DNA from: an uncultured Nitrososphaerota archaeon
GTDB lineage: Archaea; Thermoproteota; Nitrososphaeria; Conexivisphaerales; DTJL01
Direction of reading: 5' to 3'
Assembly (NCBI GenBank): GCA_963842885.1
Contig: CAWJIE010000003.1
Span: 96,001 to 160,000 of the forward strand
Length of the DNA stretch: 64,000 nucleotides
Shown: positions 5,794 through 61,006 of the stretch, one piece after another
Numbering within the stretch: the first letter of the stretch is position 1
Layout: the number at the start of each line of letters is the position of its first letter
Made by a program: the position numbers and the translations under genes
Notes under the pieces: model-generated
Databases searched by the model: none
What the model saw: only the letters and a program-made list of their open reading frames with translations
Told to the model about the DNA's origin: nothing

Positions 5794-5794
5794 A

Positions 5795-8005: not shown

Positions 8006-8006
8006 A

Positions 8007-18582: not shown

Positions 18583-18687
18583 CTCAGTGTGCGCCTCGCT
18601 GGTTGCGAGCACGAATGCCGATGGGTTAAATACGCGGTCGCTTCGTCCTAATGCCGTTACTCTCGGTGATGAGCGCTGGCCAACTGG

Positions 18688-19515
18688 TTGCTCGGTGTCC
18701 TTCTGGGCATCGTCCAAGGGATAAGCGAATGGCTTCCCATAAGCAGCAAGACCCAGATCATCATCGTTTCGACCTACCTCTTCGGGCTGGACTTCCAGAG
18801 GGCCTACTCGTTCGGCCTCTTCCTTGAGGCGGGCACCTTCCTCGCGGCGGTCATCTACTTCCGAAAGGAGGTGGTCAAGGTCCTCCTCGCTCTCGTCGGG
18901 AGGGGGGATGGAGAGGGCAGGTCGCTCCTGAAGTTCCTCCTTGTCGTCACGGCGATCACGGGGGTCTTGGGCGTGGGCATCTACCTGTTGGTCTCCGACG
19001 TCACCAGCAGTCCCGTGATAGGCATCCCGATGATAATTCTGGGAGTCGTGCTGCTGGCCGACGCATCGCTCATCAGGTTCGCGAGGAACCGCCGTACCCC
19101 CACCAGAGGGATTCAAGGCCTCACCCTCAGGGACGACGTACTCATTGGGCTGGCGCAGGCCCTCTCAGCCTTTCCCGGCGTCAGCAGGTCGGGGACCACG
19201 GTGTCAGCGATGCTCCTCCTCGGCCTGAAACCAGAGGAATCATTCAGGTTGTCGTTCCTCGCGCTGATTCCCGCCTCCGTCGGGGCGGCGCTCGTCTCGG
19301 TGCTGTTCTCGCACGGCGCGATGAGCTCTGTGATCTCCACCGTGGGCTTGCCGACCATCGCCGTGGCCATAGTCACTGCCATGCTGGTCAGCCTGCTCCT
19401 GATCAGGGTGCTGCTCAGGTTCGCCGCCAGCAGCAGGATCACCGTCCTCATCCTCGCCCTTGGGCTCATCGCCATCTTCAGCGGCATTACTAGCCTCCTG
19501 TCGGGCTATGGTTGA
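18688..19515 (+). CDS. uppP: undecaprenyl-diphosphate phosphatase (BacA/UppP family)
   Basis: QGISEWLPISS, PGVSRSGTT and RLSFL motifs. Confidence 0.9.
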   Translation: MLGVLLGIVQGISEWLPISSKTQIIIVSTYLFGLDFQRAYSFGLFLEAGTFLAAVIYFRKEVVKVLLALVGRGDGEGRSLLKFLLVVTAITGVLGVGIYLLVSDVTSSPVIGIPMIILGVVLLADASLIRFARNRRTPTRGIQGLTLRDDVLIGLAQALSAFPGVSRSGTTVSAMLLLGLKPEESFRLSFLALIPASVGAALVSVLFSHGAMSSVISTVGLPTIAVAIVTAMLVSLLLIRVLLRFAASSRITVLILALGLIAIFSGITSLLSGYG

Positions 19516-19760
19516 GCGCACTCTTCCGTAGCCGACGAGTGGCGCTCAGGGCGGATGGAATTGGAAACAAGACGGCCATGCAATGCTCGAGATCGTCTGG
19601 AGCTCGCCGCAGCTGAGCGTCTCCTAGGCCACGACAGTGGCGCCATGGGCGCCCGCCCTCCTGGCTTCTGGGGAGACGGATGAGCGAGATCGCGGATACG
19701 GTCTCTTCTTCGTAAAGAGGGTTAACTTATATAGCCCAGTCCCGGCGCTCTTGTCCTGAG

Positions 19761-20709
19761 TTGTCCATTGCTACAATAGAGGCGGTCGGGCTTTCCAAGA
19801 ACTACGGGTCCTTCACCGCCCTCTCTAACTTGAACCTTAAGATAGAAGGTTCGAAATGCGTCGGGTTCCTGGGGCCCAACGGCGCCGGGAAGACAACCAC
19901 GCTCAAAATCTTCGCCGACCTGATATCGCCTAGCAGCGGCCGAGCGCTCATCAATGGAACAGACGTCCACCAGAACAAGCGGCTGGCGCTTTCCTCCTGT
20001 GGCACGCTGGTGGAGACACCCGAGATCTATCCCGCCCTTACGCCCAGAAAGGCCCTAATGATGATCGCCGAGCTCAGAGGCATCCCGAATGCGGACCGAA
20101 ACAGGAGAATCGAGGAGAGCCTGGCCGAGGTCAAGATGGAGGAATGGGCCGACAAGCGTGTCGGCAAGTTCTCCAAGGGAATGAAGCAAAGGATCAACGT
20201 CGCCTCGGCCATACTCAGCGACCCCGAAATCGTGATCCTCGACGAACCCACTATGGGCCTCGACCCGCGCGGCATGAGCGAAGTCAGGGACATCGTGAAA
20301 TCGCTCAAGAAGAAGGGCAAGCTAGTCTTCATGAGCTCCCATCTCCTCAGCGAGGCCACCGAGATATGCGACGAAGTAGCCATGATCGATCACGGCAAGC
20401 TACTGGTGTATGACACCCTGGCGAACGTCTCTTCGCGTTTCTCCTCCAGCGGAAACCTGGTGGACGTGACCCTGGCTCGCCGCGCTGACGTCGAGAAGCT
20501 GAAGGCCCAAATCTCGGCCCTGAAGGGTGTCGCCTCTGTAGAGAGCATCGACCCTCTGAACTTCAGGATCGGAATGGCGGGCGGCGTTGAGGCGCAGGAG
20601 CGACTCCTCAGCGATCTCGTCTCCCTAAAGATAGGGCGTCATCAGCTACAAGGATGCGTCCCTTGCCCTGGAGGACGCGTACCTTAACCTGATCAAGGAC
20701 ACAGTGTGA
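19761..20709 (+). CDS. ABC transporter ATP-binding protein, frameshift near 20635
   Basis: GPNGAGKT, FSKGMKQR, ILDEP; C-terminal LEDAYLNLIKDTV continues in a shifted frame. Confidence 0.9.
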
Positions 20710-20715
20710 TGATAG

Positions 20716-21566
20716 ATGGCACAATCAACCAAGGTCACCCCCCGTAGCCTTCCTTCGAGCGGTTCGCAGCTAATCACCGTCTCCAAGTACGAGTTCAGAA
20801 ACTACTTCGGGTCAAGGAGGTTCTACGTCCTCCTCGCCATCGCCCTCGCCGTAAGCGCGCTTGCTCACTTATGTAGTGGCCGCTCGAAGGCCCGTCTCCT
20901 TCCTCGACAACAGCTTGGACTTCTATTCCAGCTGGTGGGGGAGGATCGCAGGGCTGATGGTGATCCTGTCGGGGATCTTCTTCGGCGGCGACGCCATCTC
21001 CTCGGAGTTCCAAAACAGGACGGGGTACTTCCTGGTCCCCAACCCGATCAGGAGGTCCTCCATCTACATCGGCAAGTGGGTTTCAGCGTTCATGGCGGCC
21101 GTGATCATACTGGTCATCACACTCGCCATAACGATGGCGAACGCATTCTATTACTTCGGCCCCACTATTCCCACCGAGTTACTTGAATCGATAGCCTTCT
21201 CCCTGATCTACCTGGCCTCCGTGATGGGCCTCACCTTCATGTTCAGTTCCCTCTTCAAGAGCAGCTCCTACTCCATACTCGTGTCGGCCATGCTCTATCC
21301 TGTTCGTCTTCTCCCTCGTGGAGACCCTTGTCTCCACCATCGTGCAGATAGAGCCATGGTTCATACCGACCTACGGCGCGTCAATCATCGCCAACGTGAT
21401 GACGGTGCCCTTCCCTCTCCACGTGGTAACGACAACTTTCGGACGTGGCATAACCCTCACCACCTACAACGCTACCATCCCTGAGGGCCTCGCAATTCTG
21501 CTGGGCTACTGCGTGATAACCGCCATCCTCGGGCTGGTGCTCTTCGAGAGGAAGGACTTCACCTAG
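20716..21566 (+). CDS. ABC-2 transporter permease, frameshifts near 20860 and 21300
   Basis: Three overlapping ORFs join into one permease: KYEFR..., GDAISSEFQNRTG, LFERKDF. Confidence 0.85.
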
Positions 21567-36681: not shown

Positions 36682-37074
36682 TCAGATCCATATCGTGGGG
36701 GGCTTCCCGAGCTTCTTGAGCGCAGGGTCGTCAGTCACACACGTCGCGGCAAGCGCGATTGCCGTCGCCGCGATCATGGACTGCGGCCCCGAGAGCCCCT
36801 GGCTGGCCTGCAGAGAGGCGGCGATGGTGGCGACCTCGGCATCGACCGCCTTGACCTTGAAGTCCTGCTGCATGAGGGAGCTCCTCGAATCGGCCACCTG
36901 CTTGCCATCGGCCTCCGTAGAGATCTTGTGCACTTCGATCAAGGTGATGACGGAGATCCACTTCGGTGCCGAGCTCTGGGCCAGCCTCTTCAGGAGCCTC
37001 GTCCTGACGGCATCCTTGGAGTAGAAGAGCTGGACGAAATAGCTGGTGTCGAAGACTAGCGCTCTTCCGGTCAA
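36682..37074 (-). CDS. vapC: PIN-domain (VapC-like) toxin
   Basis: VFDTS, TLIEV and VTDD motifs; overlaps the AbrB-type gene. Confidence 0.85.
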   Translation of the reverse strand: MTGRALVFDTSYFVQLFYSKDAVRTRLLKRLAQSSAPKWISVITLIEVHKISTEADGKQVADSRSSLMQQDFKVKAVDAEVATIAASLQASQGLSGPQSMIAATAIALAATCVTDDPALKKLGKPPTIWI

Positions 37075-37289
37075 TCCTCGTCTCTGATCCTGTAGAGGAT
37101 CTTGAGCGCGTCTTCTAGAGAAGCGCGTCCGGTCCCCGCCAGGTCGAGGGTGGAGGTCTTCTTCTTCAACAGAATACCGTCCGCATAGGCAAGCGCCTCA
37201 AGCTTGGTACCTTCCTCTATCTTGAACTTCGTCCTCAGGTCTTTAGGTATGGTCGTCTGCCCCCGCCGGGTGACCACCACTTCTGTCAT
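37071..37289 (-). CDS. vapB: AbrB/MazE/SpoVT family antitoxin
   Basis: VTRRGQTTIPKDLRTKFKIEEG. Confidence 0.88.
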   Translation of the reverse strand: MTEVVVTRRGQTTIPKDLRTKFKIEEGTKLEALAYADGILLKKKTSTLDLAGTGRASLEDALKILYRIRDED

Positions 37290-37426: not shown

Positions 37427-38815
37427 CTACACGGGGCTGTCGAAGAAATTGACGCCCTTGACGTTGGTGAACTCGCGTATGCCGAACTTGGATATCTCCC
37501 GTCCATATCCCGACTCCTTCACGCCGCCGAAAGGCATCCTCGGGTCCGACTTGACCAACCCGTTGACGAAGATTACCCCGGCGTCGAGCCTCGCCGCCAT
37601 CCGGGCGGCCCTTCCCGCATCCTTCGTCCAGACGGCTGCCCCCAGCCCGTAGGCCGTGCTGTTGGCCCACTCCGCCGCCTCCGAATCGTCCTTGACCCTG
37701 ACCAGTGGCGCGACGGGGCCGAACACCTCTTCGTAGAGCACCTTCATCTTAATGCTGAAGTTCTCGAGCACCGTGGGCTGGAAGAAGTATCCGCTTCCCG
37801 CCATGCGCTTCCCGCCGTAGGTGATCTTCGCCCCCTTGCGCACTGCGTCCCTGACCTGAGACTCCACGACCCTGAGCTGCGCCTCTCTTACGAGTGGTCC
37901 GACGTCCGTCATCGGATCCAGCGGGTCACCAACGATATATGAGGAGACCTCCCGGACGAAGAGGTCCCTGAACTCTTCGTAGACCGAGTCCATGATGATG
38001 AAACGTTTGGCGTTGATGCAGCTCTGGCCCGAGTTGATCAGCCTGGATTCCGCCCCGGCCTCGGCCGCCGCCTTAAGGTCGGCGTCGTCCAGCACGATGA
38101 AGGGATCGCTCCCTCCTAGCTCCATGACGCTCTTCTTCGTGTACCTCCCAGCCAGGGCTCCGATCGCGGAGCCTGCGGCGTTGCTGCCAGTGAAGGAGAC
38201 ACCCTTGACCAGGGGCGAAGCGATCACGTCCTGGATAACCTTGTGGCCGGTCAGGATGACCTTGAAGACCCCGTCCGGGAAGCCCGCCTCCTTGAACACT
38301 TCCTGGAGAAGCAGCGCGGACCCGGGGACGATGTTCGAATGCCTAAGCAGCACGGCGTTCCCGGCCATCACGGTCGGGATTGCGAACCTCAAGGCCTGCC
38401 ACGAAGGGAAGTTCCAAGGTTCCACGCCGAGGATGACCCCCAGGGGTTCGAAGCTGACCTGACTCCTGCGCGCATCGGTCTCCACGGCCTCCGCCTCGAG
38501 CCACCTTTCACCCTCCCTAGCCACGACTTCGGCCGTCCAGGCACACTTTTCGACCTCGGCCTGCGACTGTTTGATGGGTTTGCCCATCTCATGCGTCATA
38601 ATCCGGGCGAGCTTCTCCCGCTCCCTGCGGAGGGAACCCGCCAGGGACCTCAGAAGCTCGGCGCGATCCTCGAAACTTACCTCCTTCCAGGAGGCAAAGG
38701 CGTCCGAGGAGTCCCTCGCGTAGCGGAGACATGTCTGAGGCTCCATCAATATGTACGACTCGAGCCTTCCCCCGGTCGAGGGATTGAGAGTCCAGAACTC
38801 TTCGGAAAAGCTCAT
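37427..38815 (-). CDS. NAD(P)-dependent succinate-semialdehyde dehydrogenase-like aldehyde dehydrogenase
   Basis: PWNFP, FTGS, MELGGSDP, GQSCINAKR, EEVFGP and PFGGVKESG motifs. Confidence 0.93.
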   Translation of the reverse strand: MSFSEEFWTLNPSTGGRLESYILMEPQTCLRYARDSSDAFASWKEVSFEDRAELLRSLAGSLRREREKLARIMTHEMGKPIKQSQAEVEKCAWTAEVVAREGERWLEAEAVETDARRSQVSFEPLGVILGVEPWNFPSWQALRFAIPTVMAGNAVLLRHSNIVPGSALLLQEVFKEAGFPDGVFKVILTGHKVIQDVIASPLVKGVSFTGSNAAGSAIGALAGRYTKKSVMELGGSDPFIVLDDADLKAAAEAGAESRLINSGQSCINAKRFIIMDSVYEEFRDLFVREVSSYIVGDPLDPMTDVGPLVREAQLRVVESQVRDAVRKGAKITYGGKRMAGSGYFFQPTVLENFSIKMKVLYEEVFGPVAPLVRVKDDSEAAEWANSTAYGLGAAVWTKDAGRAARMAARLDAGVIFVNGLVKSDPRMPFGGVKESGYGREISKFGIREFTNVKGVNFFDSPV

Positions 38816-39990: not shown

Positions 39991-42083
39991 TTGCCCAAGT
40001 CGTTCGAAGAGCTCAGGACGTCGATCGCGGGGATTCCGCTCAAGAACCCCTTCCTCCTGGGGAGCGCTCCCCCAACTTGGGACGACGAACACATCATTCG
40101 GGCCGCCAAGCTTGGCTGGGCCGGCGCCGTCCACAAGACCATCGCCATCAAGGAGACGGAGGACCCCAGCCCGCGCATGTTCGCGCGGAAGTTCCTGGAG
40201 GACGTCGTTTCGGTTCAGAACATCGAACTCATAACGACCTATCCCAAGGAGCAGTGGGCCAAGTGGAACAAGCACATCAAGGCCGAGGCCCCGTCTGACT
40301 TCGTCCTCATCTCCTCTCTGATGGGCACCGGCGACCCCAACACCTGGACCGAGCCGCTGCAGGTGGCCCAGGAGAGCGGCGTCGACATGGTGGAGCTGAA
40401 CATGTCGTGCCCCCATGGCAGCCCCGAGCATGACATGGGTGCCGCCATCGGCCAGCACGCCGGACCTGGTGGAGCCCCTCGTCCGCCACATCAAGACGAT
40501 TCGCCAAGGTCCCCGTCATCGTCAAGCTGACACCCAACGTGACCTCCATCGTGCCGGTGGCCAGGGCCGCCCTCGCCGGCGGAGCCGACGCCCTGACCTT
40601 GACCAACACGCACGGCCCCGTCATGTCGGCCGTCGACGTCGAGAGCATGGTCCCCGCCCCCAATGTCCTGGGGAAGGGCGCCTTCGGCGGGATGTCGGGG
40701 CCCGCAGTCAAGCCCAACACGCTGAGGATCGTGGCCGAGGTCGCCAAGGCCCTCCCCGAGGCTGAGATATTCGCCATAGGCGGAGTGGAAGGGTGGCGCG
40801 ACGCCATGGAGTACATGGAACTGGGCGCCAGGGCCATCCAGATCGTGACGGGCGCCATGTTGCACGGCTACGATCTGATCGACGACCTCACGGTCGGGAC
40901 CCGCCAGTTCCTCCTTGAAGGAGGCTACGGCAGCGTCCTGGACGTCGTGGGGAAGGCCCTCCCCAACCTGGTGGCCCACTCCGACCTCTCATTCCAGGAT
41001 TGGATGAGGACATGGGTCAACCCGGCCGAATGCATCCCCTGCACGCGCTGCGTCACGACCTGTTCCGTCGTGGGCAGGAGCGCGATGACCATAGACCCAG
41101 TCCAGCTGGTCGCCCGATCCGACCCAGACGACTGCAAGGGATGCGGCCTCTGCGTCGGCGTCTGCCCGACCGGCGCCATCAAGATGCTCCCGGAGAAGGA
41201 GGCCAGGGAGCGATATCAGACGGTCAAGGCCATCTACCCGAAGGCCAGCTACTACTACCCGGAAACCATAGACGAGACCATCGCCGCCCTCCGACGCCAC
41301 GGGGCCGTCCTGAAGGCGGGCGGAACCGACCTCCTGATAAGGATGAAGCAGGGCATGATCTCGCCCACCTACGTCGTGGACCTGAAGAGCGTCAAGGGCC
41401 TCTCCTACATCAAGTCGAAGGACAAGAGCGTAGCTATAGGCACATCCACGACCATGAAGGAGCTCGCGGAGTCGAGGGTGCTCAAGGAGAAGCTTTCCGC
41501 CCTCCCCGAGACCGCCCTCAAGATGTCGGTGCAGGAGCTCCGGGAGGTCTCGACCCTCGGAGGGAACCTGTGCAACGCGTCCCCCGCTGCCGACACCGCC
41601 CCCGTCCTCCTCGCCCTCGAGGCGACCGTGAAGGCGATCGGGCCCAAGGGGAGCAGATCCATTCCGCTGGACTCCTTCTTCGTAGGACCAGGGAGGACCT
41701 CTCTCGAAGACAGCGAGCTGATTACGGAAGTCGAGGTACCTCTCCCTCCGGAGGGCACCGGCTTCGCTTTCGTGAAGGCCGGCAGGACCTACACCGACAT
41801 CGCCCAGGTCAACGTCGCGGCGTTGGTGCGAACGAAGGGAGGTGTCGTGGACTATTGCCGGATCGCGCTGGGTTCGGTCGCGCCCACTCCCATTAGGGCC
41901 AGGGGGGCCGAAGCCCTGCTGCTCGGCAAGAAGCTGGACGCCGCATCCGTCAGGGAGACAGCCAAGGCGGTCGTGAACGAAATCAACCCCATCAGCGACT
42001 CAAGAGGCACGGCCAAACAACGCCGCGACACGGCAGAGCTCCTGACAAGAAGGGCTCTGCTCCAGGCAGGCGGGCTGCTCTAG
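39991..42083 (+). CDS. preA: dihydropyrimidine dehydrogenase PreA-like (FMN + 2x[4Fe-4S]) fused to a CoxM/XdhB-type FAD domain; frameshifts near 40458 and 40500
   Basis: NPFLLGSAPPT, NMSCPHG, KLTPN, GGMSGPAVKP, CIPCTRCVTTC and CKGCGLCVGVCP, then KAGGTDL, TLGGNLCNASPAAD and PISDSRG. Confidence 0.85.
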
Positions 42084-42215
42084 GCTCGCCCCTCCTTTTC
42101 TCTCACATGTAACCTAGCGGGAGCTTGGCACCCAGGCCCCGCCGGCCCTTCCTCCATGTGCAATAAGGTTAAAGCCGAGGGGGGTGTCCGCGTTGGCCAT
42201 CGGAGCCCAAGCCAG

Positions 42216-42618
42216 ATGCAGCCAATCGACGCTGATGCCAGCGAAACGACTCCTTCGGTCGCAAGCACTCTTTCCCCCGGAGATGTCCCCTCCACTGATG
42301 CCTCCCCGTTGGAGCTTTCTGACGACACCTTCGACAGCGCCGTGATCAACAATGGCCTGATGATGATCGATTTCTGGGCACCCTGGTGCAGCCCATGCCG
42401 CGCCATCGCCCCCGTCTTGGAAGAGGTAGTCAAGGAACGGGCGGGGAAGCTCGTCCTGGCCAAGCTCAACGTCCGACGAGAACCCTGCGACTCCCTCCCA
42501 CTTAGGCGTCCAGGGGATACCGACCGTCTTCATAACCAGGAGGGGCGAGATCCTCGACCACATCGTGGGGGCTGTGCCGAAGGTCGAAACCGTCCGGCGG
42601 ATTCAACCCTTCCTTTGA
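42216..42618 (+). CDS. trxA: thioredoxin, frameshift near 42473
   Basis: IDFWAPWCSPC and KLNVDE; GVQGIPT and IVGAVP lie in a shifted frame. Confidence 0.85.
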
Positions 42619-42623
42619 GCCCG

Positions 42624-42995
42624 TCACCTGACCCTCTCCGCGTGGTCGTCAAGGACCCCCCTGGCGAGGGCCTGCTGGACATCGTCAACGTAGAACAGGT
42701 CAGTAAGCACAATCCTCTTCCCTGACGCGACCATGGAGGTGTGGACGCCGCGGCTAGCCCACCCCGCCACGACCGCCTGGCAGTCTGGGACACACTCCAA
42801 GATCTCCTTGGCGAAGCTATCTTTATGCACCTTGTTTGCTCTTCGGTCAGCCTGGAGCACCAGACGAGGTTTGAGGCGCAGTTCGCGGCCCGAAGGCTTG
42901 GACCTCTCGATCGTAAGCACCACGAAGAACTTGGCTCTCTCAAGGTCCTGACTGATTCTCTTACCGTCATCCGTCGCGACAGCGACCTTGGCCAA
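42624..42995 (-). CDS. NifB/NifX family (FeMo-co binding domain) protein
   Basis: KVAVATDDGKRISQ..RAKFF and DCQAVVAG motifs. Confidence 0.8.
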   Translation of the reverse strand: MAKVAVATDDGKRISQDLERAKFFVVLTIERSKPSGRELRLKPRLVLQADRRANKVHKDSFAKEILECVPDCQAVVAGWASRGVHTSMVASGKRIVLTDLFYVDDVQQALARGVLDDHAERVR

Positions 42996-43241
42996 GGAAT
43001 CCCCGGGTCGCTCTCCACATCGCGGTGGCTCTTTTGCCTTTTCCGAAGTCAGAGTCCGTGATTCGGATTGGCGTCAATGGACGAGGCGGGAGCTGTTCAC
43101 GGAACCGAAGGTCTCCCGCAGGAAGCGGAGGATGGCGTCATCTGCCGGCAGTTCACAAGGGATGCCATCGGCTGCCAGGCGTGCCTTCCAAGGATGGCGG
43201 CTCAAGCTTATATTCAGCCTCGAGCCCTCGAATCGGCATCG

Positions 43242-43937
43242 ATGACCAAGAAGCTGTTCTGGGACGACGCCTATCAAAGGGATTTCACGGCGACCGTTCT
43301 GAAGGTTGAAGGCAACTCCGTCGTGCTGGACCAGACCTGTTTCAATCCTAGAGGCGGAGGCCTGGTGTCGGATCTTGGGACCGTCGAAGGGTTCCCTCTG
43401 TCCGAGGTCTCCAAGTCTGGGGACGAAATCGTCCACGTCTTCCCTTCTCCACCCGCATTGAGGGCCGGACAGGCTGTGAAAGGCGTCTTGGACTGGGACA
43501 GGAGGTACAGAATAATGAAGATGCACACCGCTACGCACATCCTCAGCAACGTCGTGAACAGGGAAACAGGGGCCCTCATCACTGGAAACTCGGTGGCGCC
43601 TGACGAATCGCGGGTCGATTTCAGCCTGGAGGACTTCGACAAAGGGAAGATGGAGTCCTACCTAGAAAGGGTGAACGAGGTCGTCCGCCAGGACCTCCCC
43701 GTGCGCACCTACTTCCTGAAACGGGAGGAGGCGCTTTCCGTGCCCGGCATGGTCAAGCTGGCCCAGGCTGCTCCTCCCGAGACGGCCGAGCTCCGAATCG
43801 TCGAGATTGGGGATTTCGACCGCCAGGCCGACGGTGGCGTCCACGTCTCCAGGACATCCGAAATCGGGAACGTCCGCTTTCTCAGGGCCGACAACAAGGG
43901 CAGGGCCAACAGGCGGGTCTATTTCACGCTCGATTAA
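43242..43937 (+). CDS. alaXM: alanyl-tRNA editing protein AlaX-M
   Basis: LFWDDAY, LDQTCFNPRGGG, HTATH and ADGGVHV motifs. Confidence 0.92.
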   Translation: MTKKLFWDDAYQRDFTATVLKVEGNSVVLDQTCFNPRGGGLVSDLGTVEGFPLSEVSKSGDEIVHVFPSPPALRAGQAVKGVLDWDRRYRIMKMHTATHILSNVVNRETGALITGNSVAPDESRVDFSLEDFDKGKMESYLERVNEVVRQDLPVRTYFLKREEALSVPGMVKLAQAAPPETAELRIVEIGDFDRQADGGVHVSRTSEIGNVRFLRADNKGRANRRVYFTLD

Positions 43938-44072
43938 GTCCTCCTACATTCCATGGTTCGCTCATATTCTTTGATTTCTTACATCCGAGGCGCGCATTCC
44001 TTACAAATCTTGCATGAAAACGGCAACGGCCCCCGCCATGCTTAAATATCACGCACGGGTGGGCAAGGAAGA

Positions 44073-45745
44073 ATGAAACGACTGCTTTCGTTAGAGAAGC
44101 GCAGAGCAATATCACGGATGGTAATCGTGGCCGCGGTGATAGTAATCCTAGTCATCGGAGGCGGGGCAGCGTACTACCTCGTCCTCAACAAACCTAGTAG
44201 TACGACCACCAACAAGACCACCATCACGGTGGGTACCACTGACACGGTCCAGACGACACTGGACCCCGCTGACGCCTACGACTACTTCGGGATCAACATC
44301 ATCGAGAACGTCGGAGACGGCCTGGTAGACTACGTCCCAGGGACAACCAACATCGTTCCGGCTCTTGCGACGAGCTGGACGACGAGCGCGGACGGTTTGA
44401 CCTGGACGTTCAACCTGAGGCAGGGCGTGAAGTTCCCCGACGGGACACCCTTCAACGCCTCTGTTGTGCAGTACTCCATGGATAGGCAGTTCACCATTGC
44501 GGAGCCGGAAGGCCCGTTCGAAGGAGTTGGATACGACGGCAACACCGGTGGGTTCATCAACAAGACGGTTGTGACCGGACCCTATCAGATACAATTCGTC
44601 CTGAACCAGCCCTTCTCGGCCTTCCTCGCGACGGTCGCCTTCATTCCACTCTACCCAGTCAACCCCAACATCGCCCCGATGCACGCCATAGTCAACTACA
44701 CCGCTGGAAACGCGGCCGCATCCAACCCCACCGGCCTAGGCCCATACCTGCTTTCGAATTGGGTAAGGTCTGCTGGCAAGGACGTTGAGATCGACCTGAC
44801 GGCCAACCCCAACTACTGGAACGCGTCCGCTGGCTGGCCGGCGACGAAGAACATCGTGATCAAGTTCTACTCGGACTCGACCTCGCTCCTACTGGCCCTC
44901 CAGACCGGCGACATCGACGTCGCCTACAGGCAGCTGGACGCCTCTACCATCAACTCGCTGAGCACTAACAGCAACTACAAGGTGTGGACGGGTCCCGGAA
45001 CCTTCATCCAGTACCTGGTCTTCAACACCGGGGCCGCACCGTTCAACAACGTGCTGGTTAGAGAGGCGCTCGCCGCCGCAATCAACAGGACATCCATCAC
45101 CCAGGGCGTCTTCCAGGGACAGGCTCAGCCGCTGTACGGCATGATTCCGGCTGGCATGTTCTCCCACACTGACGCCTTCCTGACCCAGTACGGCGAAGCC
45201 AACGTGACCGAGGCCCAGCAGCTGCTCCAGCAGGCAGGGTACAGCACGACCAACAAGCTCACCTTCACCCTGACCTACCCGACGGGCCATTACAGCGCGA
45301 CGGACGCCATCTCGGCGGCTCTGAAGCAAGCCTTCGAAGCCACGGGGATGGTCAGCGTCAACCTCGCATCACAGCCATGGGCCAACTACAAGGCCAGCAC
45401 GGCTTCGAACGCACTGCAAGCCTACATCTACGGATGGTACCCTGACTATGTCGACCCGTACGACTACACCTTTCCGTTCCTGCCTGCCGACGGCGTAGGC
45501 TTCCTGCACACGCAGTTCGTCGACTCGACCGATCAACAGCCTGCTCGCCCAGGTGGTAGGGACGACGTCCTCGTCAACACAACAGTCGCTCTACACTCAG
45601 CTTCAGACCAGCGCTCGCTCAGACCGTGCCGATGGCACCCCTCTTCCAGGGGACCGGCGTCGCAATCAGCACGCCCAAGGTCGGCGGCGTAGTGTTGGAC
45701 ACGACAACCATCTTCAGGTACTACCTGCTCTACGCGTCCCCATAA
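44073..45745 (+). CDS. peptide/nickel ABC transporter substrate-binding protein, frameshifts near 45530 and 45610
   Basis: LDPA, PALATSW, FNLRQGVKFPDGTPFNA and WYPDYVDP; RRAIS N-terminus. Confidence 0.9.
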
Positions 45746-45788
45746 CACAACGCTTAATTCACAGTAAAGGAAGGTTTTTTCTGTATAC

Positions 45789-46821
45789 ATGACCCTACGC
45801 ACGTACATACTGACGAGGATAGCTCTCACCCTGCCCATGTTGCTGTTCCTCCTTAGCCTTGTCTTCGTGGTAATGAGGATCCTGCCAGGTAACCCCGTGC
45901 TTCTCAGGTTCGAGAAGAACGCCAACCCTGCCTTGATAGCAGAGTACACGCACCGCCTCGGGCTGGACCTCCCCTGGTGGCAGCAGTACCTGAACTACCT
46001 CGACTGGGCTGCTCCATGGCAACCTGGGTCTGTCCATGGTTACGTTCGACCCCGTAGCGAATCAGATCCTCTCACGGTTCCCGGCCACCCTCGAGCTCAC
46101 CCTCGGCGCCTTCATAGTGGCCGCTGTGGTAGGCCTCGTCTTCGGGTCCACGGCCGCACGACGCCCAGGAGGCAAGACCGACGGCACCGTGAAGGTGTAC
46201 GGTATCCTGATCTACGCTTTCCCCATCTTCTTCCTCGGGATGATCCTGCAGCTGGTCTTCGGAGTATGGCTCCACTGGCTGCCGATAGAGGGGAGGATGC
46301 CGCAGGGGGTCATCCCGGCCGGGCTGAACTGGGGATCGATTCACATCCAGACCGGGCTCTACACGGTGGACAGCCTGCTGGCTGGCAACATCAGGGAGTT
46401 CTTCGAGGCGCTCGAATACCTCCTCCTTCCCTGCCTCACCCTCGGCCTCGTCATCTCCGGGGTGTTCGTCAGGATGACCCGCAGCAACATGCTCGAGACG
46501 ATGAAGATGGAGTTCGTCACTGCCGCTCGCGCCAGGGGGCTTAAGGAGGACACCGTGGTCTACGGATACGCCCTTAGGAACGCCCTCCTGCCCATCGTCA
46601 CCATCATGGGGCTCCAGTTCGCCCTGCTCCTGGGCGGCGCCATCCTCACTGAGACGGAGTTCAACATCCTGGGCGTCGGATCCTACCTCGTCGACCGCAT
46701 AACCTTCAGGGACTACACGGCCGTGCAGGGGACGGTGGTGTTCTTGGCGATCCTGATATCAATGGTCAGCCTGCTGGTGGACGTCATCTACGCCTACCTG
46801 GACCCGAGGATAAGGCTGTGA
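45789..46821 (+). CDS. DppB/OppB-like permease, frameshift near 46000
   Basis: LGLDLP..QQY, RFPATLEL, ARARGL EAA loop and RNALLP. Confidence 0.9.
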
Positions 46822-47707
46822 TCGAAGTGGCCAAGGATCAAGAGGAAGTGGAGACCTTCGGGTTCATGCCCCGGGCGATGCACGCCGTCGCTTCGGCCTT
46901 CGGCCCGGGCTCGGGGAGGTGGTTCATCGTGGCAGGGAGCTTCATAATCGGCTTCATCGTCGTGATGAGCCTCCTGGCCCCTTTCATCTCCCCCCACGAC
47001 CCCACCCTCCTGTTCGTCGGCCCCGACAACTCGCCCCCAGCGCCAAGTTTCCGCTGGGCACCGACCAGTACGGCAGGGACATGCTCAGCCGGATCATCTG
47101 GGGCGGTCGTTTCATGCTCACCGTCGCGGTCATAGCGGTCTTGCTCTGCCTGGCCATCGGCGTCCCCATCGGCCTGGCCTCGGCCTATCGCGGAGGCTCG
47201 GTCGACAAGGTGGTGTCCCTCCTGATGGACAGCATGTACGCGTTCCCCAGCCTCGTGCTGGCCATAGTCATCATCGGCGTCTTTGGCGTCAACGTCGTCA
47301 ACGAGGCCATAGCGATAGCAGTCGTCTACGTCCCTTCCTACTACCGGGTCATACGGAGCCAGGTCCTCACGATCAAGGAGCTCCCCTACGTCGAAGGCGC
47401 CAGGTCGATCGGCAGCAAGTCCCGACACATCCTGGGTAGCTACATACTCCCCAACATCCTCCCCTCTGTCGTCGTGGTGGCCACGATCAACTTCGCCGAT
47501 TCGATCCTTACGACGGCCGGCCTGGATTTCATCGGGCTGGGACGCCTCGACCTCCCCGATTGGGGCGTTGACCTCTTCTACGGAAGGGCGGCCCTGCCCA
47601 TCGGCGCGTGGTGGATCATCTTCTTCTCGGGCATGATGATCGTCCTTTCGGCGCTTGGCTTCGGGCTCATCAGCGAAGGCCTCGCCGAAAGGAGGGGGAG
47701 GGAGTGA
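46818..47707 (+). CDS. DppC/OppC-like permease, frameshift near 47038
   Basis: LGTDQYGRD, YVEGARSIG and PDWG motifs. Confidence 0.9.
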
Positions 47708-47713
47708 CGCCGG

Positions 47714-48673
47714 ATGGCTGAACTCCTCGAAGTCGAAGACCTGACCGTCGAATACCGGACGCGGAGGGCAACCATCAGGGCCGTGAACGCCGTCTCCTTC
47801 ACCCTGTCCAAGGGGTCCACCTTGGGCGTCGTCGGGGAGTCGGGGAGCGGGAAGTCCACGCTGGGTCACGCCCTTACAAGGCTGGTGGACCCGCCTGGCG
47901 TAGTGGCCGGCGGCCACATCTACTTCGATGGCACGGACCTGCTTTCGCTTGATGCCGAAGAGATGAGGAAGATCAGGGGGAAGAGGATCGCCATGGTCTT
48001 CCAGGACCCCATGTCCTCCCTGAGCCCCGTCAAGAAGGTGGGGGAGCACTTCGTGGAGTACATCCGGCAGCACGACCCGGCCGTGTCGGCGGGCGAAGCC
48101 CTCGACACCGCGAGGAGGATCTTCGAGGACCTCGGCATGGAGAAGTCCAGGGTGGACGACTACCCTCACCAGTTCAGCGGCGGCATGAGGCAGCGGGTGA
48201 TGATAGGCCTGGCCATCGCCCTCGAGCCGGAGCTCATCATAGCCGACGAGCCCACCACGGCCCTCGACGTGGTCGTCGAAGCCCAGATACTCGAGCTGCT
48301 CAGGGAGCTCAAGAAGAAGTACTCGGTCTCGATGATGCTCATCACGCACAACATGGGGGTGGTGGCGGAGACGGCGGACAGGATAGCCGTGATGTACGCA
48401 GGGAAGATCATGGAGCTGTCCACCGCCGACAGGCTGTACTCCCACCCCATGAATCCGTACACGGAGGCCCTACTGGGCTCCATCCCCAACATACTCGTCA
48501 ACGACCAGGTCCTGAAGTCGATACCTGGGAGTCCTCCTGACATGGCTGCCCTCCCTCCGGGGTGCCCGTTCAGCCCGAGGTGCCCGTTCGTCTTCGACAG
48601 GTGCAGGGTCGAGGACCCGCTTCTCAAGAAGGTGGAAGGGGACACGTATACGGCCTGCCACTTGCATGGGTGA
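47714..48673 (+). CDS. oligopeptide ABC ATP-binding protein OppD/DppD
   Basis: GESGSGKS, YPHQFSGGMRQR, DEPTTALD and CPFSPRC motifs. Confidence 0.93.
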   Translation: MAELLEVEDLTVEYRTRRATIRAVNAVSFTLSKGSTLGVVGESGSGKSTLGHALTRLVDPPGVVAGGHIYFDGTDLLSLDAEEMRKIRGKRIAMVFQDPMSSLSPVKKVGEHFVEYIRQHDPAVSAGEALDTARRIFEDLGMEKSRVDDYPHQFSGGMRQRVMIGLAIALEPELIIADEPTTALDVVVEAQILELLRELKKKYSVSMMLITHNMGVVAETADRIAVMYAGKIMELSTADRLYSHPMNPYTEALLGSIPNILVNDQVLKSIPGSPPDMAALPPGCPFSPRCPFVFDRCRVEDPLLKKVEGDTYTACHLHG

Positions 48674-49679
48674 ATGACAATGTCCTTCCTAGAAGTCAGC
48701 GACCTCAAGAAGTACTTCCCCGTCCAGCACGGGCTCCTGGAGCAGCTCACGACCAGGCATCCGAGCTTCGTCAGGGCCGTGGACGGCGTCAGCTTCTCTC
48801 TGGCCAAGGGAGACATCTTCGGGCTGGTGGGCGAGAGCGGCAGCGGCAAGACCACGACCGGCCGCCTGACCATCGGCCTGATAAAACCTACGTCGGGGAA
48901 GGTCGTCTTGGAAGGAATCGAGATTCAGAGCCTCGACGGCAAGGCCTTGCGCAAGATGCGGACTAGGATGCAGATTATCTTCCAGGACCCCACCGCTTCG
49001 CTGAGCCCCAGGATGAAGGTGGGCGATGCCGTGGCCGACGCGCTCAAGCAGTTGGAGGACGCGGACGACTCAGGAGGCGAAGAGGCGCGTCCTCGAGATG
49101 TTCGAGTATGTGGGCCTCTCCCCGGCTCGTGAGATCTATTCGCGGTACCCGAGCAACCTGAGCGGCGGCCAGAAGCAGCGCGTCATCATAGCCAGGGCCC
49201 TCGTGACCCGTCCTGAATACGTGGTGGCCGACGAGCCCGTCGCCATGGTGGACGTCTCAGTTAGGGCCCAGATCCTTGACGTCATGCGCGGGATGCACGA
49301 GAAGCTGGGCCTCACCTACCTCTTCATCACGCACGACCTGGCCGTGGCCAAGTACCTCTGCAACAGGGTGGGCATAATGTACCTCGGGAAGATCGTGGAG
49401 CAGGGCGACACCAGGGAGATCTTCAATCTCCCTCTCCATCCATATACCCAGGCACTCCTCGCCGCCGTCCCCGTCCCTGACCCGTCCTCCAAGAGGGACA
49501 AGAAGATTCCACGCGGAGAGATACCGGACGCCATCAACCCTCCGCCCGGCTGTCGTTTCAATCCGCGCTGCCCCTATGCCACCGAGATATGCAGGAAGGA
49601 GGAGCCCCCGCTGAGAGAGGTGGGTCCTTCGCACACCGGTCACCTCGTGGCCTGCCACTGGGCGGAGAAGTTCCTGTAG
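48674..49679 (+). CDS. oligopeptide ABC ATP-binding protein OppF/DppF, frameshift near 49050
   Basis: GESGSGKT, LSGGQKQR, GCRFNPRC and VACH motifs. Confidence 0.92.
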
Positions 49680-49747
49680 GGGCGTCGCACCAGGCGCATC
49701 TGCGCAAAGGCTTATGAGGCGTAACCACAATCAGCGGGAGACAAGCC

Positions 49748-50500
49748 ATGTCTCTGGACGACGGACGCGCGTGCGCAGGATAGCGCTGGACTTCGAGGCG
49801 CGCTATCCCACCGCCGGCGCCCGCGGGGCTCTCGCATACGAACAGAGGACGGTCATGGAGGCCCTGGGGCCCCTGCGCCCGGGGGTCCTCTTGGACGTGG
49901 GCACGGGCACAGGGAGGCTCATCAACTTCCCTCCGCCTCCCGAGGTCGTCGGGATGGACTTCTCCGAGGACGATCTGGAATGGGCCGTGGAGCGCTACTC
50001 TGGAGACCGGTCCAAGCACTTTGTGCTGGGCATCGGCGTCCAGCCTCCCGTTCAGGGACGACGCATTCGACGAAGTGCTCAGCATCAGGGTGATCAAGTT
50101 CCTGGAGGATCCCGAAGCGGCCGTTTCGGAGATGGCGGACGTTCTGAAGCCCGGCGGCAGGCTGGTCGTGGACATCAGCAACAAGTTCTCCCCTTCTGCG
50201 TTCATTCGGCGGCTGGGGTCGTGGATGAGGATACGTTCGCCCTCGAGGGCCTACTTCACGCACGGTGACGGTCTCAAGATGATGGCCTCCGTGGGCCTCA
50301 CACCTTTCACGTCGAGGCCCCTCTTCAAGGTGGACCCCTCCCTGTGGACGGCCCTGCGGCACGAGAGGTTAGTGAGGCTGGCGGAATCGCTGGAGCGTCT
50401 CCTCGACAGGAGGACGGGAGTATGGTTCCTGTCGCGATACGTAGTCATAGCCTGCGAGAAACCCTTCTCGAACTTGCCAGGTCCTCCGAGAGGGAAGTCT
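49748..50500 (+). CDS. class I SAM-dependent methyltransferase, frameshifted, boundaries approximate
   Basis: LLDVGTGTGR and GMDFS in one ORF; LPFRDDAFD and VLKPGG in the next. Confidence 0.75.
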
Positions 50501-50537
50501 TATACCTCAGGGGCCCTTGTTTCCCTCTTGATCGCGT

Positions 50538-50932
50538 TTGCCAGTCAAGATCCCAGCGGCAGGCAAGAGGTTGTTGGACGGGAAGAACTTCGCCAGCTTC
50601 GCCACTCTCATGAAGGACGGCTCCCCCCAGGTGAGCCCCGTCTGGATATCGAGAGACGGCGACGTCGTGCTGGTGAACACTAGCGTGGGCAGGGTCAAGG
50701 AGAGGAACGTGCTCCGCGACCCGAGGGTGGCCATCTGCGTCTTCGACATGGAGAACCCCTACAGGAAGATGTTGCTCCGGGGACGGGTGGTGGAGATTGT
50801 CAGCGAGAGGAGCAAGGGAGCACATCGACGCCCTTTCGATGAAGTACACGGGGACACAAGTACGCAGGGATGAAACCAAATGAGAAGCGCGTCATCTTCA
50901 GGATAGCGCCCGCGTCGGTGAGCGTGAGCTAG
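50538..50932 (+). CDS. PPOX class F420-dependent oxidoreductase, frameshifted
   Basis: ATLMKDGSPQVSPVW and RNVLRDPRVAI; EKRVIFRIAP at the C-terminus. Confidence 0.85.
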
Positions 50933-50987
50933 CGGACGCCGAGGTTCAACAACCGAAATAAGCGCCCCGCTCTCTACCCCTGACGCG

Positions 50988-51498
50988 TTGCCGGAAGAGA
51001 TCAGGTTCAGCCCGATAGGCGTGGCCCACACCTCCGCTTCAGACGAAGAAGTGCGAGACAAGGGGAAGGAGCTGGACTTCACCATCGACATCTTTCCCGA
51101 ATTCAAGGAGGCCCTTGAGGGCATCGACGGCTTCTCGCATCTGATCGTCATGTTCCACTTCAACAAGCTTCGCCCCGAGCAGAAGGGGGTCCTGAAGGTC
51201 AAGCCCAAGAAGTTCCTCCGAAGGGGGCTGACGCTCGAGCAGCTCCCCTGGCTGGGGGTCTTCGCTCTCGACTCCCCGTCCAGGCCCAACCCCATCGGAT
51301 TCTCCGTCGTCAGAGTTCCTCAGGCATGATGGCCTTCGGCTCGACGTGAGGGGGCTGGAGGCCTTCGACGGCACCCCCGTCCTCGACATCAAGCCCTACA
51401 CGCCGGAGAGGGTCATTGCCGGCATAAGGGTCCCTCGGTGGTACAGAGACTTGGACGTGCTGGCAGAAGATGAGAAGCTGAGGCGCGCGCACAGCTAG
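50988..51498 (+). CDS. trmO: tRNA m6t6A37 methyltransferase TrmO (TsaA), frameshift near 51325
   Basis: GFSHL and GVFALDSPSRPNPIG; LEAFDGTPVLDIKPY downstream. Confidence 0.9.
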
Positions 51499-59568: not shown

Positions 59569-61006
59569 ATGACCGCCTTGGACAGAGATCTTGCGGAACG
59601 CGCCATCGAAGCCGCGACGAAGGCCGACGCCGAATACGCTGAGGCTCGCCTTCAAAGGAACGTCGAACAGATGGCGGTCCTGAAGAACGGCGAAGTCGAG
59701 GCACCGGGCTACGGCGACACCCTCGGTATCGGCGTGCGGGTGATGTATAAGGGTGCCCTAGCCTTCGGCTCCACCAACGTCCTCGACAGGTCCAGCGTCA
59801 CGGAGCTGGCCACCCGCCTCACCAAGCAGGCGAAGGCGTCCGCGCCATACTTCAAGGAGAAGGTCAAGATGAGCCGAGAGGACGTCCATCTCGCAAAGTG
59901 GGGAGCGGAAGAGAAGGAGAGCCTGGACGACATCACCTTGGAGAGCATCATCTCGTACCTGAAGGAGCTGGACGCGGTAGCCACTTCCGCTGGCGGCGAC
60001 GTCAAGCTGGCCAACAGGGTGCTCTATCTGCTTAGCGAAGTAGACGAGAAGTACTTCACGAACTCCGACGGCTCCAAGCTGGATAGCCGGGTCCCACGCC
60101 TCATGGTCTACGGCATCCTGACGGGAGTTAGCGGAGGGAGCGTCGTGCAGAGGATGGTTCAATACGGGGAGGTGGGCGGCTGGGAGGCGCTGAAACGCAT
60201 GAAGTATCCTGGAGAAGGTGGGCGAGGAATCCTCCATGGTGCTGAAGATCCTGAAGGACGCGGCCAAGTTCGTCCCCGGGGAGATGGATGTCCTAGTCGG
60301 TCATGAGGTCGCGGGCATCATGGCACATGAGTCGGTGGGCCACCCCGGAGAGGCCGACAGGATACTTGGCAGGGAGGCCGCGCAGGCGGGGGAGTCCTAC
60401 CTGTCTTCGGACGACGTGGGCCTACGGGTCGGGAGCAACGAAGCGAACATCAGCGACGACCCCACGCTTCCACATGCTTACGGCCACTATCTCTACGACG
60501 AAGAAGGGGTGAAGTCTCGCAAGAGGAGGCTCATCGCGGGGGGCGTGATCACAGAGCTGTTGCAGAACAGGGAGACCGCGCAGACATTCGGGGTCGACAG
60601 CAACGCCTCAGCCAGGGCAGTCCGCTACGACAGGGAGCCCATCATCCGGATGGCCAACACCTATGTGGAGCCCGGCGACTACACCTTCGAGGAACTCCTC
60701 AAGGAGATCAGCCACGGGGTCTACATCAAGAACTTCATGGAATGGAACATCGACGACAAGAGGCTGAACGGAAGGTACGTCGGGCACGAAGCATATCTCT
60801 TGGAGCACGGCGAGATCAAGGGTCTAGTCCGCAATCCCATCATCGAGATAAGCACCCCCAGGCTCTGGGGCGGCGTCCACGCCCGGGGGAGGGAGATGGA
60901 GTTCGGCGCCGCCACATGCGGGAAGGGCGACCCCTCGCAGGGCGCACCCGTGTGGCATGGCGGCCCCCAGTTCGTGGTGAAGGGTGTCAAGGTTGGAGCG
61001 AGGTGA
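59569..61006 (+). CDS. tldD: TldD metalloprotease, frameshift near 60210
   Basis: HESVGHPGE, YDEEG, RMANT and CGKG motifs. Confidence 0.9.

Follow-up and report, generated by a model that had tools for sequence, protein, structure and literature searches.

Domain organisation of the fused protein

Positions 39991–42083 on the forward strand of the window (the whole 64,000-nucleotide stretch of DNA that was analysed) encode a PreA-type core, composed of an FMN barrel with a dihydropyrimidine dehydrogenase (DPD)-type active site and two [4Fe-4S] motifs, which continues without a stop codon into a complete CoxM/CutM-type FAD domain. All parts of the gene listed in this paragraph lie on this strand. 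The N-terminal part of the PreA FMN barrel spans approximately residues 1–157 (39991–40460), begins at a TTG start in frame 1 and was identified from its translation and by NCBIfam, where 39991–40458 matches positions 2–152 of the 422-position PreA model with 132 bits. This piece is 95.5% identical to residues 1–156 of the corresponding protein of the related genome G012. It carries the pyrimidine-site motif NIELI (40219–40233), which aligns with N609–I613 of pig DPD (PDB 1gt8), and the catalytic loop NMSCPHG (40399–40419), whose cysteine aligns with C671 of the pig enzyme. The C-terminal part of the barrel (40497–40892, DHO_dh profile positions 155–284) is read in frame 3 and is followed by a two-[4Fe-4S] ferredoxin domain of the Fer4_21 type (41016–41186), a stop-free linker of ~19 residues (41187–41243) that has the same length in nine of nine fused homologues, a CoxM-type FAD-binding domain (FAD_binding_5, 41244–41744) and a CO_deh_flav_C domain that ends with the stop codon (41766–42083).

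Pfam analysis of the uninterrupted frame 40497–42080 returned four domains in the order DHO_dh (2.1e-21), Fer4_21 (4.1e-12), FAD_binding_5 (4.2e-45, profile positions 3–169 of 170) and CO_deh_flav_C (8.1e-25, profile positions 2–102 of 102). NCBIfam assigned the same frame to PreA positions 166–409 (221.1 bits) and then to full-length FAD subunits of the glyceraldehyde-DH beta/XdhB type. Both resources agree with the initial annotation, which had described a single protein running from the barrel through two [4Fe-4S] motifs into a CoxM/XdhB-like FAD domain. The flavin motifs AGGTDL and TLGGN..ASPAAD are found in the translated ORF, and the residues of AGGTD and T..GNLCNASPAAD are invariant in the nine fused proteins. 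Because the PreA/CoxM junction falls inside a single uninterrupted ORF of 514 residues, the fusion is independent of any frame correction, and the reported absence of a stop codon at the junction holds.

Frame breaks in the barrel region

The reading frame shifts from 1 to 2 near 40460 (40459–40463) and from 2 to 3 near 40495–40496 (40493–40497), which places at ~40460 and ~40495 the two single-base indels suspected earlier near 40458 and 40500. Each break corresponds to one extra base in comparison with the intact, 99%-identical protein P0001, which reads QHADL at the first site and HIKRFAK at the second. Short-read contigs from runs X1 and X2 (~98% identical) also lack both extra bases, omitting a single base at each of positions 40460 and 40495. 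These contigs differ from the window at ~50 of 2254 bases and represent a close strain that is not demonstrably the window's own population; runs X3 and X4 gave no coverage of 40439–40515. The intact relatives of 696 residues, P0001 among them, are likewise free of the extra bases. Around the gene the window shows approximately one frameshift per kb; of 13 G012 genes with matches of at least 60% identity at window positions 36–51 kb, seven switch frame in the window.

Because the extra bases are missing from the relatives and from the X1/X2 contigs and frameshifts are this frequent nearby, the two breaks most probably arose as mistakes in an assembly rich in indels and do not belong to the gene itself. 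It is quite improbable that the gene was truly inactivated in this strain by two 1-base insertions. The assembly does hold both insertions, neither of which lies at a long homopolymer, and the contigs without them stem from a strain ~2% different. However, the genes that switch frame in the same 15-kb stretch are all intact in G012, the pyrC, CoxM and CoxL genes elsewhere in the genome are also in pieces, and, indels aside, the gene matches an intact protein at 99% identity.

The catalytic half is of the PreA/DPD type

DPD is a textbook multi-cofactor enzyme. With 381.1 bits, the intact relative P0001 passed the 335-bit cut-off of NF006183, the NCBIfam equivalog model for PreA, whereas it failed the dihydroorotate dehydrogenase (DHODH) model PRK07259 (165.7 bits, cut-off 269) and two other PyrD models (160.1 against 270 and 134.6 against 330). 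The best solved match was pig DPD at 212 bits (DPD structures, 177–212), and class 1B DHODH structures reached 95–103 bits. The motifs NIELI, N-x-SCPHG and TNT align with pig DPD residues N609, N668, C671, N736 and T737, which we take to be the catalytic cysteine and the pyrimidine/uracil-contacting residues. At the corresponding positions the class 1B DHODH 5ue9 has N-P-G-L in place of NIELI and SCPN in place of SCPHG. The two-[4Fe-4S] C-terminal domain of PreA/DPD is also present, as judged from the Fer4_21 match and from eight cysteines (C347, C350, C353, C357, C381, C384, C387 and C391) that are invariant in the nine fused proteins.

The overall architecture nevertheless departs from each related system. 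PreT of the NAD-dependent E. coli DPD PreT-PreA (YeiT-YeiA) is a GltD-like NADH/FAD/2×[4Fe-4S] subunit. The fusion shares the FMN barrel and the C-terminal 2×[4Fe-4S] domain of the PreA half, but it has no adjacent PreT, its genome has no free GltD-like gene, PreT's two clusters are absent, and its C-terminus is formed by a non-homologous CoxM-type FAD domain. The active-site residues and the C-terminal cluster domain align with mammalian DPD (PDB 1gt8, 1h7w, 1gth). In the pig enzyme, the FAD/NADPH module has the GltD fold and is N-terminal together with an extra ferredoxin domain, whereas the FAD module of the fusion is C-terminal, has the fold of a molybdenum-hydroxylase FAD subunit and comes without extra clusters. 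Class 1B PyrD-PyrK (PDB 1ep3) similarly combines a homologous FMN barrel, an iron-sulfur centre and FAD in one complex; however, PyrK is a ferredoxin-reductase-type FAD/[2Fe-2S] protein, and the barrel motifs of the fusion are of the DPD and not the DHODH type.

The CoxM-type FAD domain

Among solved structures, the FAD domain is closest to the CutM/CoxM subunits of CO dehydrogenases, and it is 40–50% identical to stand-alone CoxM proteins. P0001 passed none of the NCBIfam equivalog cut-offs of this family, falling below those for glyceraldDH_beta (215.1 against 350) and XdhB (192.9 and 183.4 against 310 or 287). As in the CoxM/CutM/XdhB/CutB subunits (1ffv_C, 1n5w_C, 4zoh_B), FAD_binding_5 and CO_deh_flav_C are present at full length with conserved FAD motifs. 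Unlike these proteins, the fused domain does not form a subunit of its own and has no CoxL/CoxS genes beside it, and its presumed Fe-S neighbour is the 2×[4Fe-4S] ferredoxin domain and not a 2×[2Fe-2S] CoxS. To our knowledge, the CoxM-type FAD module has so far been encountered solely as a subunit of molybdenum hydroxylases, and we know of no use of NAD+ by the CutM/CoxM subunits of CO dehydrogenase. Since these subunits are its nearest solved relatives, use of NAD(P)H by the fused FAD domain is not supported.

Conservation and distribution of the fusion

Nine full-length fusions (696–702 residues, 56–99% identity) were found among the 120 homologues listed; a tenth listed homologue is a fragment covering the Fer4 and FAD domains. 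The nine correspond to nine protein clusters, and one full-length representative was found among 1.84 billion proteins. The fusion is conserved but rare, and the archaea that carry it, from soil and hot springs, are few. Conservation extends to all four segments, with 68% identity in the barrel and 50% in the FAD domain for the most distant pair. The in-frame recurrence in nine independent protein clusters and the constant linker length indicate that the fusion is not a chance event.

Relatives that encode the two halves separately and have a normal preT, which the initial annotation had named as evidence against its reading, were not found. No relative splits the fusion into adjacent PreA and CoxM genes, the halves are always fused where both are present, and none of the relatives has preT next to the gene. 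The nearest stand-alone archaeal PreA genes (50–52% identical) adjoin etfBA, not preT. Other PreA fusions in the database involve Pyr_redox_2/Fer4_20 or an extra N-terminal ferredoxin domain. We found no description of a PreA-CoxM fusion in the main texts of the open-access literature.

Redox partners and pathway context in the genome

The ~10 kb flanking the fusion on each side contain no gene for a molybdenum subunit, a 2Fe-2S subunit or a GltD/PreT-type protein, and over this range the earlier statement that none of these is adjacent stands. Further away, 31–35 kb upstream (5059–8978), CoxS, CoxL and CoxM genes form a complete set that includes its own CoxM. The genome (2.03 Mb, 87% complete) encodes 10 CoxL, 10 CoxS and 10 stand-alone CoxM proteins. 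Because these form 10 complete triplets, the fused domain is an eleventh FAD domain and no molybdenum/2Fe-2S pair is without its own FAD subunit. The single Fer4_20 (GltD-like) match in the genome adjoins a PyrK-like gene, an arrangement of the NfnAB/SudAB type, and the fusion protein itself contains no Fer4_20 or Pyr_redox_2 domain. The genome-wide search for preT and for orphan molybdenum/2Fe-2S subunits proposed in the initial annotation identified neither. There is also no CoxL or CoxS gene beside the fusion in the window or in G011, G012 or L021.

The gene neighbourhood yields no firm clue to function. An SSADH-like aldehyde dehydrogenase upstream and a thioredoxin downstream are syntenic in close relatives, but gene order is conserved across this region in general, and the L021 thioredoxin is matched more closely by another paralogue than by the one in the window. 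In L021, an NCS1 permease and a cytosine deaminase are encoded 6–9 kb downstream of the fusion; the window's genome has no counterpart near the fusion and gave zero codA matches.

There is no clear sign of a reductive pyrimidine pathway. The genome encodes a dihydropyrimidinase equivalog (515 bits, cut-off 393) on a different contig from the fusion. No beta-ureidopropionase was detected in the 87%-complete genome (zero TIGR01879 matches), and the sole CN_hydrolase resembles a Nit1-type amidase. We rejected dihydropyrimidinase co-occurrence as a functional clue: the gene is found in three of three fusion-bearing genomes but also in five genomes from the same family that lack the fusion.

A candidate PreT-independent DPD and its alternatives

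Described DPD enzymes receive electrons either from a GltD-like NAD(P)H/FAD module or, in clostridia, from free ferredoxin. We favour with moderate confidence the reading that the fusion is a PreT-independent DPD in which the CoxM-type FAD domain serves as electron entry or exit. The protein would be a 696-residue single-chain flavo-iron-sulfur enzyme whose PreA/DPD-type FMN barrel reduces or oxidises the 5,6 bond of a pyrimidine. Its FAD domain would replace PreT in electron supply, trading two electrons with an external carrier such as NAD(P)H, quinone or another compound, and the electrons would pass singly between FAD and FMN through the two [4Fe-4S] clusters, with direct FAD-to-cluster transfer. 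The ferredoxin domain is expected to sit against the FAD domain where CoxS meets CoxM in molybdenum hydroxylases. In this scheme we infer the loading of the cofactors, the pyrimidine substrate, the FAD-to-cluster step, the direction of the reaction and the external partner. The lack of an evident reductive pyrimidine pathway speaks against this scheme, and so does the number of clusters: the flavins of pig DPD have to be bridged by four, and the fusion protein contains two. An AlphaFold2 model of the full fusion, calculated from a 9-row alignment, had a mean pLDDT of 61.5 and a pTM of 0.47, with values below 50 in the ferredoxin domain and linker, and is therefore unusable for domain packing. 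Prediction of the PreA part as a complex with the FAD part, including FAD and two 4Fe-4S clusters, gave scores of 0.13 and 0.18, below the mark of 0.32 required for an answer, and speaks neither for nor against contact between them.

The initial annotation had offered two readings, a self-contained DPD with a different FAD module, which is the one favoured here, and a docking subunit, which we consider very unlikely. Under the latter, the fused FAD domain would still associate with CoxS and CoxL of a molybdenum hydroxylase encoded in the genome, so that pyrimidine reduction would be wired straight to the oxidation of an N-heterocycle, an aldehyde or CO. The FAD domain is indeed a full-length homologue of CoxM with the identity to stand-alone proteins given above, and 10 such enzyme sets are unusually many for a genome of this size. 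However, docking is made unlikely by the pairing of every molybdenum/2Fe-2S pair with its own adjacent CoxM and of the sole GltD-like gene with a PyrK-like gene, and the neighbourhoods of the fusion in the window, G011, G012 and L021 hold no molybdenum/2Fe-2S gene. In addition, the PreA ferredoxin domain, on its ~19-residue tether, would be expected to compete for the CoxS-binding face of CoxM. There is likewise only a slim chance that the CoxM-type module, acting as the stand-alone electron gate of a non-molybdenum enzyme, still swaps onto CoxS/CoxL pairs; if it does, pyrimidine reduction would be supplied directly with electrons that one of the ten molybdenum hydroxylases takes from CO, aldehydes or heterocycles.

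Two further alternatives concern the reaction itself. A PreA-like enzyme that acts outside pyrimidine catabolism or on another substrate, its FAD domain passing electrons to quinone or another non-nicotinamide carrier, is unlikely but less so than docking. It would fit the lack of a Pyd-type gene cluster and the CO-dehydrogenase flavoproteins as nearest solved relatives of the FAD domain, and E. coli PreAT is described as standing outside any Pyd pathway and as being of unknown function (PMC7332683). Against it, all uracil-contacting residues of pig DPD are conserved and the PreA equivalog cut-off is passed. Oxidation of dihydroorotate, with electrons flowing from FMN through the Fe-S clusters and FAD to an acceptor as in class 1B PyrD-PyrK and in replacement of a lost pyrD, appears scarcely probable. 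In its favour, G000 (the window's genome) and G011 have no DHO_dh-family match other than the fusion. A cassette of a pyrF-like gene, pyrD and a gene of unknown function in G012 is cleanly missing at the syntenic site of G000, where the flanking genes lie 85 bp apart. G013 and G014 have pyrD without the fusion, and this direction of flow would suit the normal role of CoxM as an electron exit. However, G012 carries both pyrD and the fusion, the comparison covered five related genomes only, and the motifs and the PyrD HMM scores far below cut-off argue against a DHODH. The missing cassette also includes the OMP-decarboxylase-like gene (zero PF00215 matches in G000), and loss of the whole pathway or a gap in the 87%-complete assembly therefore better explains the absence of pyrD.

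The favoured reading of a PreT-independent DPD has a partial precedent in clostridial PydAc, a DPD that is described as lacking the FAD/NADPH domains and running on ferredoxin (PMC7332683). The DPD core of PydAc works without a PreT-type FAD/NADPH module (PMC7332683), which shows the electron-input module to be exchangeable. The other PreA fusions and the archaeal PreA genes beside etfBA mentioned above are further precedents for such an exchange. PydAc resembles the fusion in having a DPD core without this module; it is devoid of any flavin domain for electron input and retains a ferredoxin domain at its N-terminus (PMC7332683), whereas the fusion lacks such an N-terminal domain and carries the CoxM-type FAD domain instead. 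The fusion probably represents a novel route by which electrons are wired to a known enzyme. If so, the natural and conserved joining of the DPD catalytic core to a non-homologous flavin domain would demonstrate that this core can be re-wired and that the CoxM fold can work outside molybdenum enzymes, and it would offer a compact single-chain system for studying electron transfer from flavin through [4Fe-4S] to flavin. In databases, the plain label "PreA" on the fused proteins hides the extra domain.

A PreA-type barrel runs into a CoxM-type FAD domain within one open frame

Translation of the fused gene begins at a TTG codon at 39991 (+) in frame 1, which encodes a PreA-type barrel up to ...GAAIGQH. 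The homologous reading carries on for ~11 codons in frame 2, and from 40497 frame 3 is a single open frame to the stop codon at 42081–42083, with its ATG/GTG-bounded part listed as a 514-aa ORF (40539–42083). Within 40497–42080 on the forward strand we identified, in this order, the Pfam domains DHO_dh (profile positions 155–284), Fer4_21, FAD_binding_5 (3–169 of 170, E 4.2e-45) and CO_deh_flav_C (2–102 of 102). In NCBIfam, the two frame pieces fall on PreA positions 2–152 and 166–409 of 422, and the C-terminal 280 residues match glyceraldehyde-DH-beta/XdhB-type FAD subunits over their full length. Because this layout places the PreA-to-CoxM junction inside an unbroken frame, the fusion itself requires no frame correction. 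The initial annotation, which described one protein passing from PreA into a CoxM-type FAD domain without a stop, was therefore correct on this point, and all the motifs it named are present in the window sequence.

The two single-base indels that it placed near 40458 and 40500 were also located. The closest database protein (P0001; 99% identity over the 528-residue query) is intact at 696 aa and reads ...GQHADLVEPLVRHIKRFAKVPV... across the region of both frame breaks; set against the window DNA, this reading indicates one surplus base at ~40459–40463 and another at ~40493–40497. Logan contigs from two peat metagenome runs of one study (X1 and X2) span the entire fused gene and are a single base shorter than the window at each of 40460 and 40495; these contigs represent a near relative rather than the window's own reads, as ~50 of 2254 bases differ. 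In two further runs (X3 and X4), the bin with the two indels was not covered. Thirteen genes of the related genome G012 match window 36–51 kb at 60% identity or more, and in the window seven of these change frame, three of them twice (~10 switches in total, all between 40 and 51 kb). The switching genes (40000–51300) are the fused gene, an SBP_bac_5 binding protein, two permeases, an ABC ATPase, a methyltransferase and a small gene; TldD (59569–61003) is likewise split. Elsewhere in the genome carrying the window (G000), pyrC is broken into three and several CoxM and CoxL genes into two. Given a window and genome full of such breaks, the indels in the fused gene are very probably assembly errors, and it is unlikely that they mark a pseudogene. 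Single-gene "frameshift" findings in this indel-rich assembly warrant suspicion.

The catalytic core is of dihydropyrimidine dehydrogenase type

P0001 passes the curated PreA equivalog (381.1 bits; cut-off 335) and fails all PyrD models (165.7 versus 269, 160.1 versus 270 and 134.6 versus 330 bits). The best solved-structure match to the core is pig dihydropyrimidine dehydrogenase (DPD), to which NIELI aligns at N609–I613, N-x-SCPHG at N668–H673 and TNT at N736–T737, residues that we take to serve uracil binding and proton donation. In contrast, a class 1B dihydroorotate dehydrogenase (5ue9) in the same structure search has N-P-G-L and SCPN where the fusion has the DPD-type NIELI and SCPHG.

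This DPD-type active site argues against the fusion being a replacement dihydroorotate dehydrogenase for pyrD, which we consider highly improbable. The fusion is indeed the only DHO_dh-family gene (PF01180) in G000 and in the related genome G011, and G000 cleanly lacks, at the syntenic site (C3:442266–442351, syntenic to L032 7817–11000), the pyrF-like/pyrD/unknown cassette that G012 carries. However, G012 contains both pyrD and the fusion, and an OMP-decarboxylase match (PF00215) is absent from G000 as well. The G012 cassette comprises a pyrF-like gene, a quinone-type pyrD and an unknown 306-aa gene; in the related genome G014 the same cassette adjoins pyrB-pyrC. G000 has pyrB and the fragmented pyrC; lacking the cassette, it is either auxotrophic for pyrimidines or incompletely assembled at this site.

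A dihydropyrimidinase equivalog is encoded in G000 on a different contig from the fusion, adjoining a CaiB-type CoA-transferase, and five family members that lack the fusion have one too. No beta-ureidopropionase was found in the 87%-complete G000.

The fusion is conserved and rare

In a homologue search that scored 8000 proteins (3614 passing E 0.001), nine of the 120 matches listed are full fusions with all four domain types (696–702 aa, 56–99% identity), a tenth is a contig fragment of 332 aa with Fer4 and FAD domains, and the remaining 110 are stand-alone CoxM-type proteins of 290–314 aa. Linker length is identical in all nine fusions, and the eight cluster cysteines, the catalytic loop, AGGTD and GNLCNASPAAD are invariant in those aligned. 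Conservation extends to all four segments; the most distant pair shares 68% identity in the barrel, 54% in the FeS domain and 50% in the FAD domain. When 1.84 billion 50%-identity representatives were scanned exhaustively with HMMER, exactly one of the matches listed covered residues 1–696 and the other 149 covered one half only.

The full fusion occurs in three of the 36 genomes searched from the window's order (G000, G011 and G012), all of one genus, and public MAG records bearing it are titled Conexivisphaerales archaeon. It is also present at five metagenome loci (L018–L022), one copy being 75% identical and on a 746-kb contig. G010, of the same order, encodes a stand-alone PreA (438 aa, 54% identical) with no adjoining CoxM or PreT gene. 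The initial annotation had allowed that relatives might encode the two halves separately; none of those examined has PreA beside a CoxM-like gene. The fusion is real and conserved. Databases annotate it as plain "PreA", and we found no description of the architecture in the literature.

Wang et al (2020; PMC7332683) describe single-chain mammalian DPD, a split PreA/PreT-type form and, from clostridia, PydAc, whose electrons come from ferredoxin and which has no FAD/NADPH domains. Among 14 longer PreA-containing matches scanned from the HMMER listing, five contain Pyr_redox_2 (two of them also Fer4_20), one has an additional N-terminal Fer4 domain and the rest show DHO_dh only, with or without a C-terminal Fer4; FAD_binding_5 is found in none of the 14. 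The stand-alone archaeal PreA proteins nearest to the fused core (439 aa, 50–52% identical) belong to a Fervidicoccaceae MAG and to a Thermoprotei MAG or its metagenome contig. Their genes (L017 8261–12036; L025 8239–12262; L026) are divergent from etfB-etfA and convergent with a nitroreductase gene, so that PreA might alternatively be partnered by ETF in electron transfer. These varied fusions and neighbours indicate that the catalytic core recurs with different electron modules, and the CoxM fusion is one further module, by far the rarest. L017 continues with a Fer4_22 protein, a PyrK-like protein and NiFe-hydrogenase subunits.

Redox partners and a proposed electron path

The initial annotation saw no PreT, Mo or 2Fe-2S gene adjacent to the fused gene, and genes of the GltD/PreT, Mo or 2Fe-2S type are indeed absent for ~10 kb around it. 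Across G000 (2.03 Mb, 11 contigs, 87% complete), the sole Fer4_20 match is a 462-aa GltD-like gene that passes the TIGR01316 cut-off ("NADPH-dependent glutamate synthase"). We rejected it as PreT, since it abuts a 283-aa PyrK-like gene ("sulfide/dihydroorotate dehydrogenase-like") in an NfnAB/SudAB arrangement. FAD_binding_5, MoCoBD_1 and Fer2_2 searches returned ten CoxM, ten CoxL and ten CoxS loci, which form ten triplets, each within ~3 kb; the fusion brings the number of such FAD domains to 11. The initial annotation had proposed either a self-contained enzyme or a docking subunit for a Mo enzyme. With 13% of the genome unseen, no Mo/2Fe-2S pair lacks its own flavoprotein, which favours the self-contained enzyme and counts against the docking subunit.

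One triplet is a complete CoxS-CoxL-CoxM operon in the window (5059–8978) with its own FAD subunit. Two others (C3:448457–451844 and C3:547862–551230) lie ~99 kb apart with CoxM scores of 127.5 bits each; either a large stretch was duplicated recently or the second copy is a product of the assembly.

The fusion is mechanistically suggestive, and its function is wholly inferred. The FAD of the C-terminal domain would exchange either a hydride or two electrons with a carrier outside the protein, and single electrons would travel on to FMN through the adjoining ferredoxin domain with its two [4Fe-4S] clusters. At the FMN, the uracil or thymine 5,6 bond would be reduced, the loop cysteine donating the proton, or the reaction would run in reverse. 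In Mo hydroxylases, the CoxM flavin is presented to the Fe-S domain, CoxS; by analogy, the tethered ferredoxin domain would take the place of CoxS against the CoxM-type domain, possibly across the dimer as in DPD. Among solved structures, the FAD domain is nearest to CODH CutM/CoxM and to a Sulfolobus oxidoreductase subunit, and NAD-using XDH scored lower than CutM/CoxM in the structure-database search. The AlphaFold2 model of the fusion was poor.

Gene neighbourhood

The 75%-identical relative is at L021, where genes for an NCS1 nucleobase permease and for a cytosine deaminase (500 bits; cut-off 483) follow 6–9 kb downstream of the fused gene (18238–21101); G000 has no cytosine deaminase match. 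In the window, a thioredoxin with a WCSPC motif (42156–42725) follows the fused gene by ~70 bp on the same strand. Its N-terminus carries an unusual extension, and its frame is probably faulty. In G012 and L021, too, the gene after the fusion encodes a thioredoxin, although other G000 paralogues are closer to the L021 protein than the window's is. Upstream, a VapBC-like pair of PIN-domain toxin and AbrB/MazE-type antitoxin (36685–37289) is kept in G011 and G012. Also upstream is an aldehyde dehydrogenase (37430–38815, −), divergent from the fused gene and syntenic in both genomes, whose best match is NADP-dependent succinate-semialdehyde dehydrogenase (502 bits, under the 730 cut-off).
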